From an uncultured delta proteobacterium (GTDB lineage Bacteria > Desulfobacterota > BSN033 > UBA1163): a DNA stretch of 64,000 nt. Below the pieces are notes generated by a model. It did no database searches and was not told the origin of the DNA. It saw nothing but the letters and a program-made list of their open reading frames with translations. The stretch lies in assembly GCA_963827685.1 (NCBI GenBank), contig CAWHBU010000004.1:608001-672000 (forward strand), in the 5' to 3' direction. Position 1 is the stretch's first letter. Each line of letters opens with the position of its first letter. This document shows positions 27,984 to 49,487 of this stretch, in pieces. The position numbers were made by a program, and so were the translations under genes.

Positions 27984-28041
27984 AAAGGCCCTTCCTTAGA
28001 AAAGGAAGGGCCTGGAGATTCATAAGCGGCACTTATTTTAT

Positions 28042-28580
28042 AAAAAATACCTGTTGAATACCGCCCAGCTCTGCTGGGCGGATGAAAACAGGTTCGCGAA
28101 GCGATAAGACATGGTATAAGTACTGCATGAGCTCGATAAAAAGAACAAGCCATGCGGTCTACGATTTGAAATATCATATGGTATGGGTTCCCAAATATCG
28201 GAAGATGATATTGGGAGGTGAGTTGGCAAAAAGGCTTAAGATGAGTTTTGAGCAAATATCGGAGAGGTACGAGTTTGAGATAGATACGATGGAGGTAAAG
28301 GATGATCATGTTCATTTATTTTTGTCTGCCCCTCCTCGGTATTGTCCGGCAGAGATTGTGCAGATCATAAAGAGTATCTCGGCGAAAATGGTGTTCAAGC
28401 AGTTTCCAGAGGTGAAGAAAGAGCTTTGGGGTGGAGAGTTTTGGAGTGATGGGTATTTTGTTCGGTCTGTTGGAGACAAAGTTACCTCTGAAGTCATACG
28501 TCGCTATATAAAGTATCAGCAACAGGAGCAATTAAGTTTTGAATTTTAATGCCCCGCAGCTCTGCTGCGGGGTTCTTTAC
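28042..28580 (+). mobile_element. IS200/IS605-family element, tnpA only, copy 1 (539 bp)
   Basis: Subterminal hairpins CCGCCCAGC-TCT-GCTGGGCGG and CCCCGCAGC-TCT-GCTGCGGGG; inserted after TTTAT; appears identical to copies 2 and 3. Confidence 0.95.
28127..28549 (+). CDS. tnpA: IS200 HUH/Y1 transposase (start 28127, or 28082)
   Basis: YHMVWVPKYR, DHVHLF (HUH), FWSDGYF, YIKYQ. Confidence 0.95.
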   Translation: MSSIKRTSHAVYDLKYHMVWVPKYRKMILGGELAKRLKMSFEQISERYEFEIDTMEVKDDHVHLFLSAPPRYCPAEIVQIIKSISAKMVFKQFPEVKKELWGGEFWSDGYFVRSVGDKVTSEVIRRYIKYQQQEQLSFEF

Positions 28581-28880
28581 TATTGAATTGTAATGTTTAC
28601 TACTGTGGTCCCAGTCCTTGATCGGCGCGAAGATTCTGAGAAGACCGCTTTCATATTTGGCCTCTGTCTTTTCAGGCACGACTTCATGGGCCAAGTTGAA
28701 GCAACCCGAGTATTCCGTGTCTTCGCCCCGGAGGGCTGAGATACAAAAACTATCTCTTCTCATCTCGAGTGAGATATCTTTTTTATCGACACCCGGCATT
28801 TCCATATCGACTCTGAGGCGTCCGCCCTGATCGTCATGAGAAAAACAGGCGCACGGCGTTATTCTTATTCTGTTGTCCAT
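28580..28880 (-). CDS. Hsp20/alpha-crystallin family protein; probable 1-bp error near the 3' end
   Basis: MPGVDKKDI..AKYESGLLRI; natural-looking end VVNITIQ* lies in the adjacent frame at the IS junction. Confidence 0.8.
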
Positions 28881-33157: not shown

Positions 33158-34414
33158 ATGGCATTCGAATTCAAATTTCCTGATATTGGAGAAGGATTAA
33201 CCGAAGGCGAGATTGTCCGTTGGTTGGTTAAAGAGGGGGACGAGATCAAGGAGGGAGAACCCCTCGTCGAGGTTGAGACCGACAAGGCCCTTGCAGAGAT
33301 CCCTTCTCCCAGGACGGGTGTCATTCTGAAGATACTGGCCAAGGAGAAGGAGATCGTAAAGGTTGGTCAGGTGATTGTTGTGATCGGAGAAAAGGGAGAG
33401 GCATTGGCAGTTCCTTCTCCAAAGCCCAAATCAGTGGGTGTGGTAGGTGAGCTGGAGGAGGCTCCTGAGGAAGCCCCTGCAGTCACGGCTAAAGTTGAAC
33501 CGGTGAAGACAGCCCTGGTCAGCGAACATGTGCTGGCCACACCGGCTGTTCGGGCTTTAGCAAGAGAGTTGAGTGTTGACATCAATAAAGTACAAGGGAC
33601 GGGACCTGAAGGCAGAGTTTTAGAAAAGGATGTGAAACAGTTTGCAGAAGGCAAGGCGAAACCCGTTGAAGAAGCGAAGAAACCCGCAAAGGTTAAAAAA
33701 TATGACCTGTATGGATATGTTGAACGCATTCCTTTGCGAGGGGTCAGGAGATCCATTGCCAAAGCCATGGTGAAATCGAAATATACTGCGCCCCATGTCT
33801 CGGCGATGGATGAAGCGGATGTCACAGAACTTTGGAAAATCCGGGAGAAGGAGAAGAAAATTGCGGAGAGTAAAGGGATTAAACTGACTATCCTGCCATT
33901 CCTCATCAAAGCCGTTATCGCCGGTCTGACCGAACATCCCTATCTTAACGCCACACTGGACGATGAGAATGAAGAGATTATTCTAAAAAAATATTTCAAT
34001 ATTGGCCTTGCCACAGATACTCCTGAAGGGTTGATGGTCCCGGTGGTCAAAAATGCTAAAGACAAATCTATCTTTGATCTGGCACAGGAGATGGCCCAAT
34101 TAGCTGAAAAGGCAAGGAACCGAACCATCGATCTGGCTGATCTGAAAGGGGGGACTTTTACCATCACCAACTACGGGACGGTGCGTGGGATTTATGGGAC
34201 TCCGGTCATTAACTACCCCGAAGTGGCCATCCTGGGCGTCGGAAGAATTCAAGACATGCCCGTGGTCAGGCGCGGGAAAATGGTTGTCCGAAAAATGCTT
34301 CCCCTGTCCCTCTCCTTCGATCACCGGGTGGTGGATGGTGCTGAAGCAGCCCGTTTTCTTAATACGGTCATTACCCGCCTCGAAGACCCCGATCTCATTT
34401 TGTTAGAAACGTGA
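33158..34414 (+). CDS. pdhC: Dihydrolipoamide acyltransferase E2
   Basis: Lipoyl ETDKA, ATPAVR subunit-binding domain, DHRVVDG catalytic motif. Confidence 0.93.
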   Translation: MAFEFKFPDIGEGLTEGEIVRWLVKEGDEIKEGEPLVEVETDKALAEIPSPRTGVILKILAKEKEIVKVGQVIVVIGEKGEALAVPSPKPKSVGVVGELEEAPEEAPAVTAKVEPVKTALVSEHVLATPAVRALARELSVDINKVQGTGPEGRVLEKDVKQFAEGKAKPVEEAKKPAKVKKYDLYGYVERIPLRGVRRSIAKAMVKSKYTAPHVSAMDEADVTELWKIREKEKKIAESKGIKLTILPFLIKAVIAGLTEHPYLNATLDDENEEIILKKYFNIGLATDTPEGLMVPVVKNAKDKSIFDLAQEMAQLAEKARNRTIDLADLKGGTFTITNYGTVRGIYGTPVINYPEVAILGVGRIQDMPVVRRGKMVVRKMLPLSLSFDHRVVDGAEAARFLNTVITRLEDPDLILLET

Positions 34415-34508
34415 AATGACATGAGCACCCATCCTCCACTGCACCTCACATGATGCAGGGGGGAAAATCCCACCATATTCTCCACTACAAAAATTTATGA
34501 ATAAGTAC

Positions 34509-34537
34509 TTGACAAATGGGCTTTGTAGGATTACAAT
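34509..34537 (+). promoter_or_regulatory. Sigma70 promoter of the hgc operon
   Basis: TTGACA-17 bp-TACAAT. Confidence 0.75.
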
Positions 34538-34593
34538 CAGCACAAACTGACAATTCAGATAAGTCAGCCATTCCTGTAACTGGAGGTGATGAA

Positions 34594-34872
34594 ATGCCCA
34601 AAAGAAATCAAAAGGCCTGCTGCTCCCCTGCGGGAATGGGGAGCAATTATTGTAAAGTCGAGTCGATCATCAGTGTCGACGAACGAGGACAGATGGTGCT
34701 TCCTAAAGAATTGAGGGATAGGGCAAATATTCGCCCGGGGGATAAGCTGGCCATTGTCAGCTGGGATAAAGGCGGAGAGGTTTGCTGCATCTATTTGATC
34801 AAAGCAGAATATCTGGCAGAGCGTGTGAAGGATTTTCTGGGTCCCATGATGAAAGGCATCGCCACAACCTGA
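34594..34872 (+). CDS. AbrB/MazE-fold, Cys-rich HgcAB-associated protein (HgcC-like)
   Basis: VDERGQMVLPKELR..IRPGDKL AbrB motif, two CC pairs, directly upstream of hgcA; SD GGAGGTG. Confidence 0.8.
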   Translation: MPKRNQKACCSPAGMGSNYCKVESIISVDERGQMVLPKELRDRANIRPGDKLAIVSWDKGGEVCCIYLIKAEYLAERVKDFLGPMMKGIATT

Positions 34873-35005
34873 TATCAGACGCAAATTCTGGAAATGGCAA
34901 TCAAGCCATATCGCAATATAGGAGAGTTCTCATGGATAAGGCAAGAGGTTACCCGTCAGCGCAACAAAGTAATCACCCTACAAACACAAGCTGTTGACCA
35001 TCAAG

Positions 35006-35031
35006 TGGAGGGGCTCAGTTGAGCCTACCCA
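35006..35031 (+). promoter_or_regulatory. Putative bacterial SECIS for hgcA UGA 34995-34997
   Basis: Stem GGCTC/GAGCC with loop AGTT beginning 20 nt after the UGA; extended by TGG/CCA. Confidence 0.6.
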
Positions 35032-35670
35032 GTTTAAAGCAACCCTTTGTCCTCGGTTTGATCCAAACCCCGGTTGGCCCAGTGCCTCAAGTCTCGTCAT
35101 CCCTTGGTTGGACAGACCATTTAGGAACTTTTAAGACTCGTTGGGGGATAGGCCGCATGCATTATACCATCGAGCCCGGTCTTTATGCCTTGGGAAAACC
35201 CGATGAGCAATCGCCGGTCTTGGTGACAGCCAATTATAAGATGAGCTTTGACAAGCTCCGTGAGGCATTGCCGGGCCGGAACATGTGGATACTGGTCCTG
35301 GATACGGGAGGCATCAATGTCTGGTGCGCTTCGGGGAAGGGGACCTTCGGGACGATGGAACTTGTTGGACGAATCAAATCGAGTGGCCTAAGCCAGATCG
35401 TTTCGCATCGGGAGTTGATTTTGCCTCAGTTGTCGGGCCCGGGAATTGCGGCTCATCATGTCAAGAAATTATCCGGCTTCAAAGTGATTTACGGCCCCAT
35501 CCGGGCGACCGATCTTCCAACTTTCTTGGAAGCCGGACTTAAAGCGACACTGGAGATGAGGCTCAAGACCTTTACGACCTTGGAGCGCATGGTACTCATC
35601 CCGATGGAACTTGTCTTAGCCCTAAAGGCGGGTATGATTGTCATTCCTATCATGCTTCTCTTGGCTTTAT

Positions 35671-36209
35671 AAAAAATACCTGTTGAATACCGCCCAGCTC
35701 TGCTGGGCGGATGAAAACAGGTTCGCGAAGCGATAAGACATGGTATAAGTACTGCATGAGCTCGATAAAAAGAACAAGCCATGCGGTCTACGATTTGAAA
35801 TATCATATGGTATGGGTTCCCAAATATCGGAAGATGATATTGGGAGGTGAGTTGGCAAAAAGGCTTAAGATGAGTTTTGAGCAAATATCGGAGAGGTACG
35901 AGTTTGAGATAGATACGATGGAGGTAAAGGATGATCATGTTCATTTATTTTTGTCTGCCCCTCCTCGGTATTGTCCGGCAGAGATTGTGCAGATCATAAA
36001 GAGTATCTCGGCGAAAATGGTGTTCAAGCAGTTTCCAGAGGTGAAGAAAGAGCTTTGGGGTGGAGAGTTTTGGAGTGATGGGTATTTTGTTCGGTCTGTT
36101 GGAGACAAAGTTACCTCTGAAGTCATACGTCGCTATATAAAGTATCAGCAACAGGAGCAATTAAGTTTTGAATTTTAATGCCCCGCAGCTCTGCTGCGGG
36201 GTTCTTTAC
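35671..36209 (+). mobile_element. tnpA: IS200 element copy 2, inside hgcA (tnpA 35756-36178)
   Basis: Same 539-bp sequence as copy 1, inserted after TTTAT. Confidence 0.95.
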
Positions 36210-36631
36210 TTGGGAAGTCAGGAGAAGGTTGGACGAATGCCTTCAGCCATGGCCTTTTCTCTATTCTGGCCATCCTGACTGCCATTCTGGTTGGTGCAGT
36301 TCTAACACCTTTGTTGCTGCCATGGCTGCCGGGCAGGGCCTTTTCAGTCAAGGGCTTCAGTATAGGGGGTCTCACCGTTGCAGCCCTCTTGGTTTTTCGC
36401 TGGAATGATTGGGTCACGTGGGGGGGACGTCTCGAAATATTGGCTTGGCTCTTTTTTATACCTGCGGCCTCGGCTTATCTGGCAATGAATTTCACGGGAG
36501 CTTCAACATTTACCTCCCTCTCCGGGGTCAGAAAAGAAATGCGGTGGGCTTTGCCGCTTGAAATTGGTGCTGGAATTGTAGGTCTCGGTCTTTGGCTCGG
36601 ATCAAACTTCCTCGCATAAGGAGTTCAAACG

Positions 36632-36979
36632 ATGAATCCATTGATTTATCTTAGAGATGTTGTCACATTAAAGCTTGATCCCCAAAAATGCATGGGGTGC
36701 GGAACGTGTCTTTTGGTATGTCCCCATGCCGTCCTCAGCCTGACCAATGGCAAAATTGAGATCGCAAATCGAGACGCCTGCATGGAATGTGGCGCCTGCG
36801 CCCGAAATTGTCCTGCCGAGGCTCTGAATGTGCGCTCAGGGGTGGGTTGTGCAACGGCCGTGATCAATGGCATGCTGGGGCGAAAGAAATCTTCCTGCTG
36901 CTGCACGATCGATTCCGAAGAAAAATTAAGTAGTCCTTCCGAATGTTCTCCCGGTGCTAACCGTACAGACTGCTGTTAG
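36632..36979 (+). CDS. hgcB: Mercury methylation ferredoxin HgcB
   Basis: Two CxxCxxCxxxCP motifs, CMECGAC and GVGCA signatures, C-terminal Cys clusters; immediately after hgcA. Confidence 0.93.
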   Translation: MNPLIYLRDVVTLKLDPQKCMGCGTCLLVCPHAVLSLTNGKIEIANRDACMECGACARNCPAEALNVRSGVGCATAVINGMLGRKKSSCCCTIDSEEKLSSPSECSPGANRTDCC

Positions 36980-37156
36980 CTAACCAACTTCTCCAATCGT
37001 GAAAAGTCCCTATGTTGAGCGGGATCAATTGTCTGTGCTCCTGCCTCCTGCAGGACTGTTGGAGTGGATGAAATTGGGGACAATGAGACTGATTTAGGTT
37101 CGATAGGGTAGGTGGGTGTGTGGGACTTCAGAAGAGAAGCATCACTAAGAGAGTAG

Positions 37157-37486
37157 CTACGGAAGTGAAAGAGTGAAAAACCATGCTCTGAGGCTCCTTT
37201 TCTTGGATGGAGGCTGGTGCTGCAACTCGATAGGCTCTGAAGGAATAAGGCTTTTTAGATAATTTTCATATTGGAGGACAATGTCTTTTGGATTGAGGGT
37301 GAGATATCTGGCGTAAACGTTCAAGAACCCTTTAACGTAAGGGACGGCAGGAAGGAGCTCATATCTGTCTTCTTCGATGGCTTTGAGGTAGTGCTCCTTT
37401 ATCTTGGTGAACTTAGAGATTTCTTCCAGCGAGATATTTCGTGTCTCCCTTTCTTTTCTTAGAAATTTTCCTGGAGACTCCATCAT
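37157..37486 (-). CDS. XRE/RodZ-like helix-turn-helix protein
   Basis: GKFLRKERE..ISLEEIS..TKIK..YLKAIEE..YVKGFL. Confidence 0.8.
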   Translation of the reverse strand: MMESPGKFLRKERETRNISLEEISKFTKIKEHYLKAIEEDRYELLPAVPYVKGFLNVYARYLTLNPKDIVLQYENYLKSLIPSEPIELQHQPPSKKRSLRAWFFTLSLP

Positions 37487-48794: not shown

Positions 48795-48925
48795 GCACCA
48801 AATTCCAAGCCCTGTACCTAATATGGTGCAGGGCAAGCACCAAATAACAAATAAATTCCAATTAACCAAATTCGAATTTCAATACGGGTTATTTTGGTCA
48901 TTGGATACTGAGTATTGAGATTTAT

Positions 48926-49464
48926 AAAAAATACCTGTTGAATACCGCCCAGCTCTGCTGGGCGGATGAAAACAGGTTCGCGAAGCGATAAGACATGGTA
49001 TAAGTACTGCATGAGCTCGATAAAAAGAACAAGCCATGCGGTCTACGATTTGAAATATCATATGGTATGGGTTCCCAAATATCGGAAGATGATATTGGGA
49101 GGTGAGTTGGCAAAAAGGCTTAAGATGAGTTTTGAGCAAATATCGGAGAGGTACGAGTTTGAGATAGATACGATGGAGGTAAAGGATGATCATGTTCATT
49201 TATTTTTGTCTGCCCCTCCTCGGTATTGTCCGGCAGAGATTGTGCAGATCATAAAGAGTATCTCGGCGAAAATGGTGTTCAAGCAGTTTCCAGAGGTGAA
49301 GAAAGAGCTTTGGGGTGGAGAGTTTTGGAGTGATGGGTATTTTGTTCGGTCTGTTGGAGACAAAGTTACCTCTGAAGTCATACGTCGCTATATAAAGTAT
49401 CAGCAACAGGAGCAATTAAGTTTTGAATTTTAATGCCCCGCAGCTCTGCTGCGGGGTTCTTTAC
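48926..49464 (+). mobile_element. tnpA: IS200 element copy 3 (tnpA 49011-49433)
   Basis: Same 539-bp sequence, inserted after TTTAT in an intergenic repeat. Confidence 0.95.
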
Positions 49465-49487
49465 TTGGGATTTGGAAATCGGGATTT

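Follow-up and report, generated by a model that had tools for sequence, protein, structure and literature searches.

Proteins of the AbrB/SpoVT type autoregulate; to our knowledge, AbrB has neither a sharp consensus site nor a cysteine cluster. MraZ, a member of the AbrB superfamily with two tandem domains that forms large rings, binds phased direct TGGGN repeats with a 10-bp period upstream of its own dcw operon and autorepresses, and type II antitoxins of the MazE/PrlF kind use palindromic operators. What switches on the mercury methylation genes hgcAB is an open question of mercury biogeochemistry. Methylmercury production is poorly predicted by gene abundance and, according to the accessible part of the report on Pseudodesulfovibrio mercurii ND132, a single hgcAB regulator has been tested, in this one Desulfovibrio relative, where an arsenic-responsive, ArsR-like protein encoded on the same transcript controls hgcAB (Gionfriddo et al., bioRxiv 10.1101/2022.10.17.512643). 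A 'TA-associated' (toxin-antitoxin) prlF/mazE/abrB gene directly upstream of hgcA was described for 14 contigs and 8 cultured methylators by Zhang et al. 2023 (PMC10349881), the available text of which assigns to this prlF/mazE/abrB-like gene, mainly in archaea, a putative role in regulating hgcAB. Here we analyze such a gene, hgcC, and its promoter in a stretch of 64,000 nucleotides from the genome of an uncultured delta proteobacterium (GCA_963827685.1, contig CAWHBU010000004.1, positions 608,001 to 672,000), the whole of which is called the window in the following. The hgcC promoter carries short boxes on a strict 9-bp lattice that are conserved upstream of related genes in bacteria and archaea; they probably constitute the autoregulatory operator of HgcC, itself probably a metal(loid)-sensing repressor.

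The preliminary description of this DNA had placed, directly behind a promoter of the form TTGACA-17-TACAAT, a series of CAG or CTG triplets (CWG, with W for A or T) starting at 34538, 34547, 34556, 34565 and 34574, that is in exact 9-bp steps. Direct reading confirmed the promoter at 34509-34537 as well as all five triplet starts and their spacing. The features of the region are listed here, with offsets counted from the start of the -35 hexamer:

34509..34514, + strand: -35 hexamer TTGACA, from direct reading (TTGAC occurs in 94/103 family promoters)
34532..34537, + strand: -10 hexamer TACAAT, with a 17-nt spacer to the -35 hexamer, from direct reading and promoter scan
34536..34541, no strand, centre 34539: putative operator box 1, ATCAGC, at +30, abutting the -10 hexamer
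34546..34551, no strand, centre 34548: putative operator box 2, ACTGAC, at +39 (CTGAT in orthologues and related strains)
34554..34560, no strand, centre 34557: putative operator box 3, TTCAGAT, at +48, a complete TCWGA match
34563..34568, no strand, centre 34566: putative operator box 4, GTCAGC, at +57, equal to the +66 box of the orthologues shifted by one lattice step
34573..34577, no strand, centre 34575: fifth CWG, CCTGT, in phase, matching TCWGA at 3/5 positions and not conserved
34582..34589, + strand: ribosome-binding site GGAGGTGA, GGAGG-like in the aligned orthologues
34594..34872, + strand: hgcC, encoding a cysteine-rich AbrB/SpoVT-fold protein of 92 residues, the presumed repressor (NF040962, PF04014)

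The hexamer pair scores 11/12 and is the top one of four promoter-like sites in a promoter scan of 33800-37300. Downstream of TACAAT the sequence runs ATCAGCACA AACTGACAA TTCAGATAA GTCAGCCAT TCCTGTAAC, followed by GGAGGTGA and by the ATG of hgcC at 34594, a conserved start codon. In the genome of the window (5,228,624 bases in 14 contigs) CWG has a frequency of 0.028, and five CWG at period 9 occur once, at this site, with 0.1 expected from base frequency. Five-fold CWG arrays at other periods number 0, except for period 7 (18) and period 12 (3); such arrays also come from other repeats and from coding periodicity. As the motif was picked after looking, this count is weak by itself, and it is the comparative data that carry the weight.

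For the comparison, NF040962 was searched in 41 genomes, namely this one and 40 relatives, with matches above the cut-off in 26. The search returned 27 loci, 9 with the order hgcC-hgcA-hgcB (including the window) and 18 with an HgcC-like gene followed by a gene for an ArsM-like methyltransferase. The alignment of the 27 proteins was then run against the GTDB collection, with each species represented by a single genome. Out of 570 stretches encoding a relative, the best 80 entered the set. Their source groups are Syntrophaceae/Syntrophales (the closest), Syntrophobacterales, Desulfarculales, Dehalococcoidales, Aminicenantia, Actinobacteria, Aerophobetes, Methanoperedens and other Halobacteriota, and Thermoplasmata; one carrier in this set, Desulfoferrobacter suflitae, can be cultured. 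Four of the 80 share upstream DNA with loci already in the set, which leaves 103 non-identical promoters of 107. One promoter, L062 with 105 nt upstream, was scored as empty and counts as a miss in all figures for the 103 promoters, though boxes are visible in it.

The 110 nt upstream of the 103 genes were compared for 5-mers with the remainder of the same loci, with strands pooled. ATCAG/CTGAT is the top enriched 5-mer (251 observed, 27.8 expected) and is present in 100/103 promoters; TCAGA/TCTGA comes second, with 202 against 19.6 expected. With box positions taken at the central W of the TCAG/CTGA cores, 464 of 554 core-to-core distances (84%) are exact multiples of 9 (9 bp: 184, 18: 140, 27: 74, 36: 49), compared to 254/1734 (14.6%) in the flanks of the same loci, which served as control. 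Of 381 cores, 351 are in the dominant phase of the promoter to which they belong. At least three cores in one phase are found in 94/103 promoters but in only 9/3255 control windows of 110 nt, and these arrays are similarly frequent in hgcA-linked (20/22), arsM-linked (70/76) and other loci (4/5). A motif check on the upstream regions of related genes, which the preliminary description had suggested, thus recovers both the pentamer and the 9-bp phase in several bacterial phyla and in archaea. The numbers of promoters with the most frequent occupancy patterns of the lattice are:

Pattern 111: 29 promoters
Pattern 11101: 25 promoters
Pattern 1111, to which the window belongs: 9 promoters
Pattern 1101: 8 promoters

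The peak at multiples of 9 is seen in all four orientation classes of TCAG/CTGA core pairs. Since the phase is independent of orientation and TCAGA/TCTGA is enriched, the unit is best described as a palindrome, TCWGA, with A/T-rich flanks; the consensus box reads a-T-C-W-G-A-t (aTCAGa/tCTGAt). On the same grounds a simple direct repeat of CWG was rejected. Of the repeat first proposed, the first four CWG stand as cores of the conserved unit, which is however the palindromic TCWGA and not bare CWG, and the fifth falls away as a member of the array, as CTG has a counterpart in only 3/8 orthologous promoters and CCTGT is a poor match.

The nine aligned hgcAB-linked promoters, which come from the genus and family of the window, have in common TTGACAAAT, the -10 region and the arrangement ATCAG-N6-CTGAT-N4-CTGAT-N11-ATCAG. 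Between these genomes the 4-6 nucleotides separating the boxes vary, while the boxes and the -35 and -10 hexamers are kept. The arsM-linked promoters show the same pentamers about the same -35 hexamer, often with an extra CTGAT in the spacer between -35 and -10. All eight hgcC-hgcAB orthologues carry boxes at +30, +39 and +48 from the -35 start, or two of these three. The preliminary description had named absence of the periodicity from orthologous promoters as the finding that would speak against it; the periodicity is present in the eight orthologues and throughout the family set.

The distance from TTGAC to ATG is 92-94 nt in the eight orthologues, with boxes at all or some of the positions +30, +39, +48 and +66. 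In the window it is 85 nt, the boxes stand at +30, +39, +48 and +57, and the alignment has a 9-nt gap relative to all eight. The window promoter is therefore best read, by alignment, as a deletion of exactly one 9-bp lattice step with the phase preserved. Two public metagenome runs contain contigs that share about 97.5% identity with the window over 34400-35164 and retain the short promoter form. They have TATAAT for TACAAT (34534 C>T), CTGAT for CTGAC (34551 C>T) and TCAGAT for TCAGCC (34568-34570). Thus, the array of four boxes in a row exists in a population with better boxes than those of the window. The promoter/operator of the window is possibly drifting, or else the differences at 34534, 34551 and 34568-34572 are neutral.

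Measured from the first base of TTGAC, the modal positions of the box centres in the family are +30, +39, +48 and +66, with +30, where box 1 of the window lies, occupied in 29 promoters; the -10 hexamer corresponds to +23 to +28. A second class of box centres lies three bases further downstream, and some arsM-type promoters (11 in number) also have a box at +15, within the spacer between -35 and -10. It follows from the modal centres and the position of the -10 hexamer that the array spans the -10 edge and the expected transcript start, to about +30. In the window this start would lie at about 34543-34545. The conserved boxes thus overlap the -10 hexamer and the start region of their own gene. 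This is the layout expected of an autorepressor, and it supports the suggestion made beforehand that the repeat is a candidate operator for an autoregulator.

Archaeal loci have a TTTAAATA-like stretch with boxes on either side. Such a stretch also occupies the empty lattice position of many promoters with the pattern 11101 (L048, L061, L072, L076, L105, L110 and others), where the empty position is an A/T stretch with the consensus ATATTTTAAATAA; the archaeal version resembles a TATA box (aaaGTTTAAATAtt). Some bacterial copies combine TTGACA with a similar A/T stretch in the 5' leader, a hint that the cassette was transferred from one domain to the other.

Three of the four boxes of the window probably lie in the transcribed leader, and ATCAG-N6-CTGAT could form a hairpin of 5 bp. 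The repeat could in principle act as RNA in the 5' leader, as a hairpin or as a protein-binding site. The boxes, however, keep their sequence without co-variation and occur in both orientations on one lattice, some of them lie upstream of the -10 hexamer or about the archaeal TATA-like stretches, and a search of 34380-35050 against Rfam (E-value up to 1) gave zero matches. Because the boxes extend upstream of the start, their sequence is kept without compensatory change and Rfam has no match, we read the element as DNA. An array arisen by chance is excluded by the 94/103 promoters against 9/3255 control windows. The RNA leader element and the chance array, which together we regard as extremely improbable, were rejected on sequence keeping, orientation, position and array counts.

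We next turn to the protein that would bind the boxes. HgcC matches NF040962, 'HgcAB-associated protein HgcC', with 127 bits (cut-off 70) over profile positions 2-69 of 70. It is also matched by TIGR01439 (AbrB family; 38.5 bits, cut-off 28.3) and by PF04014 (MazE_antitoxin/AbrB-type; 32.1 bits, cut-off 24.7), the latter being its best match in Pfam. Together with the cysteine pairs C9-C10 and C64-C65 these scores bear out the earlier view of the first gene as encoding an AbrB/MazE-fold protein with two CC pairs. A profile search of PDB sequences returned the SpoVT N-domain 2ro5 (E-value 4.7e-5) and archaeal AbrB-family proteins. Among the Pfam and NCBIfam matches of HgcC with E-values up to 0.01 there are no ArsR-type (winged helix-turn-helix) families. 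Membership in MraZ is not indicated, with 16.3 bits for NF001476 against a cut-off of 162 over a single short stretch, and with one domain in 92 residues. In the alignment of 27 sequences D29, R31-K38, R41, C20, C64 and C65 are invariant; the invariance of D29, R31-K38 and R41 fits one shared DNA motif.

The AlphaFold model consists of a disordered N-terminal tail (residues 1-17), a beta-alpha-beta-beta core and a C-terminal helix (71-90). Its best Foldseek matches are SpoVT 2w1t_A (E-value 0.016, template modelling score 0.42 on the query) and the AbrB N-domain 1yfb (E-value 0.065), at a model confidence (predicted local distance difference test, pLDDT) of 73.5. Prediction of a complex of two HgcC copies gave a score of 0.42, with 0.01 for the best control. 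The mark for this pair score is reached by 20/30 proteins solved as one-chain pairs and by 1/23 solved as single chains. The runs share at least 70% of contacts, the pLDDT of the partner is at least 59, and the predicted interface, made up of segments 18-38 and 62-69, is symmetric, with residue 34 of one chain touching residue 34 of the other. That the predicted dimer passes this mark may be due to mere likeness to solved AbrB-type dimers.

Across the family the gene is found in front of two kinds of methylation genes. In the best 80 of the 570 relatives the downstream gene is arsM-like in 59, hgcA in 16 and another gene in 5, and the hgcC-like gene is the sole gene common to all loci. As only 16 of the 80 precede hgcA against 59 that precede arsM, the family name HgcC is too narrow, and the distribution points to arsenic at least as much as to mercury.

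The palindromes and the Pfam match allow the boxes to be taken as the usual operator of a type II antitoxin, given that antitoxins autoregulate through palindromes and that MazE_antitoxin (PF04014) is the best Pfam match. This PrlF/MazE reading, which is that of the available text of PMC10349881, we consider hardly credible here. There is no toxin gene next to hgcC, which is followed by hgcA in the window and by an arsM-like gene or hgcA in 75/80 loci; the 127 bits for NF040962 contrast with 17.7 bits (cut-off 55.9) for the 'doc_partner' antidote model; and conserved cysteines are not an antitoxin feature. A toxin-antitoxin module was rejected as the adjacent toxin gene is wanting, with the same 75/80 loci leading into arsM-like genes or hgcA.

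Inverted pentamers such as ATCAG-N6-CTGAT could likewise suit a helix-turn-helix dimer. The boxes would then be bound by an unlinked factor, of the ArsR/SmtB type or a global regulator, and HgcC would have another role. We judge this very unlikely: the boxes accompany the hgcC-like gene in bacterial phyla and archaea alike, whatever flanks them and with no other gene shared, they keep their phase independent of orientation in up to five units, and a crude scan showed no array excess elsewhere in the genome. ArsR/SmtB sites, moreover, are of the 12-2-12 form, unlike a 9-bp array. Since the hgcC-like gene is the sole constant neighbour of the boxes, HgcC would be the obvious binder.

In an operator bound by HgcC the cysteines could act as the switch. 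HgcC of the window has C9-C10, C20 and C64-C65, with Tyr at position 19. In the 103 proteins cysteine is conserved at C20 in 103, at C64 in 101, at C65 in 102, at C9 in 81, at C10 in 76 and at position 19 in 82. These cysteines, together with arsM or hgcAB downstream, point to a soft metal(loid) as the likely inducer. We suggest the following mechanism. A two-fold symmetric, swapped-hairpin dimer of HgcC would read each palindromic TCWGA unit. Three to five units in strict 9-bp phase begin at the downstream edge of the -10 hexamer and reach about +30, and dimers arrayed on them would cover the site of the open complex and the transcript start. This would result in cooperative autorepression of hgcC and the genes behind it, hgcA-hgcB here and arsM in most relatives. 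The vicinal cysteines, among them the almost invariant C20 and C64-C65 and the common C9-C10 and position 19, would most likely bind As(III), a methylated arsenical and/or Hg(II), which could loosen the dimer array and de-repress the operon. Despite its unrelated fold, HgcC would hereby take the role that ArsR plays at hgcAB and arsM loci elsewhere.

Alternatively, HgcC may bind this operator while its cysteines are no effector switch but hold structural zinc or an iron-sulfur cluster, sense redox state, or serve as a carrier that hands Hg(II)/As(III) to HgcAB/ArsM. The C9-C10 tail is predicted to be disordered (residues 1-17, pLDDT below 50) and is like the Cys-Cys tails of the neighbouring enzymes, as HgcB ends in CC and the ArsM-like partner of the paralogue described below begins with ...SSCCAPEKSCCGS; the predicted dimer interface (18-38, 62-69), a place that would suit a structural site too, includes C20 and C64-C65. 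At least three cysteines per chain, on the other hand, are the pattern of As(III)/Hg(II) sensor sites, and a regulator that stands before two soft-metal(loid) methylation systems in the place of ArsR is most simply their sensor. We therefore regard a role of the cysteines other than sensing as rather unlikely. As a separate observation, vicinal cysteine pairs occur in all three partners, in the HgcC tail (KACCSP, 34618-34623), at the N-terminus of the ArsM-like protein (SSCCAPEKSCCGS) and at the end of HgcB (DCC, 36974-36979), and the HgcC tail resembles the presumed metal(loid)-handling tails of these enzymes.

Several points weigh against HgcC as a metal(loid)-sensing autorepressor acting through these boxes. 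In the copy of the window 3/4 boxes fit TCWGA at only 4/5 positions and the -10 hexamer is TACAAT. A crude scan of the genome showed no excess of three-box arrays, with 8 at period 9 (2 of them at this site), 2-7 at other periods and 2.9 expected, and exact ATCAG-N6-CTGAT occurs 8 times against 7.5 expected. As both local copies carry one mismatch, none of these 8 is at an hgcC promoter. With counts near expectation the genome itself gives the operator reading no independent support, and no regulon or further targets emerged from the exact-palindrome and three-box scans of the window's genome. The promoters of kindred genes share ancestry, and the counts are therefore less independent than they look, even if several bacterial phyla and archaea are represented in the set. 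The quality of the AlphaFold model, built on the 27-row alignment, is moderate (mean pLDDT 73.5, with values below 50 for residues 1-17), and Foldseek against the PDB gave no match with an E-value of 0.001 or lower. We know of no AbrB-type protein that binds at a 9-bp period, and as 9 bp fall short of a helical turn of DNA, neighbouring dimers would come off one face if the DNA were not overwound or wrapped. Finally, the cysteines of HgcC could be structural or redox-active instead.

A more specific proposal we put forward tentatively, as one that has nearly as good a chance of holding as of failing. HgcC would represent a hitherto undescribed class of metal(loid) sensors with the swapped-hairpin fold of AbrB, the dimers of which, having three vicinal cysteine pairs, polymerise on the 9-bp lattice of palindromic TCWGA units, overwinding or wrapping the promoter, and are released by As(III), methylarsenite or Hg(II), thereby coupling arsM and hgcAB across Bacteria and Archaea. 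If true, a cysteine-based sensor on the AbrB fold acting at a fixed 9-bp period would be new for metalloregulators as well as for the AbrB superfamily, and in genomes with both paralogues, as here, the sensor could cross-wire arsenic and mercury methylation.

Outside the window the genome also has two look-alike intergenic stretches, at C1:16798 and C2:469359 (…AATCATT-N6-GAAATC(T/A)G-GTAATCAG-GGG-CTCTGA…), with three TCAG/CTGA cores at 9-bp steps each. These stretches are a different repeated element.

A second HgcC-like gene, 58% identical over the tblastn match, is encoded in the same genome (locus L002, 1477-1767, - strand; contig C5 near 303.7 kb). It heads a gene for an ArsM-like methyltransferase (788-1456, - strand) and a second methyltransferase gene (1-591, - strand), and its promoter carries boxes at -80, -62, -53 and -26 from the ATG in a single 9-bp phase. 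If the two paralogues read the same boxes, cross-regulation of arsM and hgcAB could result.

In the window the gene order is hgcC (34594-34872), hgcA (from 35019) and hgcB (36632-36979). Upstream of the locus lies the end of a gene set for 2-oxoacid dehydrogenase E1alpha, E1beta and E2, named from the translations. A scan between hgcC and hgcA found no terminator-like site, so that co-transcription is likely. The spacer between these two genes (34873-35018) has 146 nt, compared to about 90-290 nt in hgcA-linked loci and mostly 12-40 nt before arsM, and contains neither Rfam matches nor lattice boxes. Behind the spacer hgcA is split by an insertion sequence (IS) element that contains the transposase open reading frame (ORF) tnpA:

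35019..35670, + strand: 5' part of hgcA, corrinoid domain (profile positions 1-195 of 325)
35671..36209, + strand: element of the IS200/IS605 family, 539 bp, within hgcA at about codon 217, with the tnpA ORF at 35711-36178
36210..36619, + strand: 3' part of hgcA, membrane domain (profile positions 226-324 in the ORF 36311-36619)
36632..36979, + strand: hgcB, ferredoxin ending in Cys-Cys (NF040864, 120.2 bits, cut-off 99)

An orthologous full-length HgcA of 353 residues aligns in two pieces, residues 1-217 at 35019-35669 and 216-353 at 36203-36616. The transposase gene at 35711-36178 matches NF033573 with 158 bits, and hairpins are present at both ends of the element. The genome holds 18 full-length copies including this one; of the other 17, 16 are 100% identical and one 99.8%. 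Two other, identical copies lie in the window, at 28037-28581 (tnpA 28082-28549) and 48921-49470 (tnpA 48966-49433). In each of two public runs one contig joins 35670 to 36210, skipping the 539 bases, and in one of these contigs the 494 and 491 letters on the two sides show only 2 differences. Thus, near-identical populations carry an intact hgcA. Junction contigs of one public run reach only 25 and 29 letters into the element, fewer than the 31 required, and were not counted as bridging. The insertion in hgcA is a recent and strain-specific one. The regulator gene and the operator are, to judge from their sequence, intact before the split hgcA, so that the circuit now seems to control a broken gene. 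An hgcA broken in this way means that a carrier of hgcAB is not always a functional methylator, which matters for surveys that count hgcA.

Overall, a second, unrelated family of putative hgcAB regulators now has a defined and conserved putative operator, TCWGA units in a lattice of 9-bp steps between the -10 hexamer and about +30. As protein, DNA fragment and candidate effectors are specified, the question of hgcAB regulation becomes directly testable. The occurrence of the same regulator and operator at the head of arsM in most carriers strengthens the idea that HgcAB is tied to the handling of arsenic and soft metals. The family as such is already catalogued (NF040962) and, in the available text of PMC10349881, has been proposed as a putative hgcAB regulator. 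A literature search yielded no account that mentions the operator, the 9-bp lattice or an hgcC-like gene leading arsM, though subscription journals and the supplements of PMC10349881 may hold more.

The gene of PMC10349881 and hgcC of the window belong to the same family, NF040962, and lie likewise directly upstream of hgcA. In the part of that report available, the gene is read in terms of toxin-antitoxin systems and appears without an operator or a link to arsM, whereas the family described here stands mostly before arsM (59/80), is widespread in bacteria and is connected with a 9-bp TCWGA lattice. With the ArsR-like regulator of P. mercurii ND132 the locus shares a small regulator gene that leads the hgcAB operon and a link to arsenic; on the ND132 side, as far as the accessible text of the report goes, related regulators also head arsenic-resistance operons. 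That regulator has a winged helix and HgcC the predicted swapped hairpin of the AbrB type, and a response of HgcC to arsenic is presumed. Compared to this system, the arrangement is indeed different from the ArsR-linked hgc loci, as had been proposed from the sequence of the window at the outset.

Within its own superfamily, HgcC shares the DNA-binding domain family of Bacillus subtilis AbrB and SpoVT (1yfb, 2ro5, 2w1t) and is predicted to form a symmetric dimer, but differs from them in its sharp pentamer on a fixed 9-bp lattice, the cysteine-rich N-terminal tail, the CC in the last strand and the single C-terminal helix. The MazE/PrlF type II antitoxins are of the same fold family (PF04014), but HgcC stands without a toxin partner and has methylation enzymes downstream. 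MraZ is alike in superfamily and in having an array of short repeats with a fixed period over its own promoter, while the sequence, direction and period of the repeats differ between the two systems.

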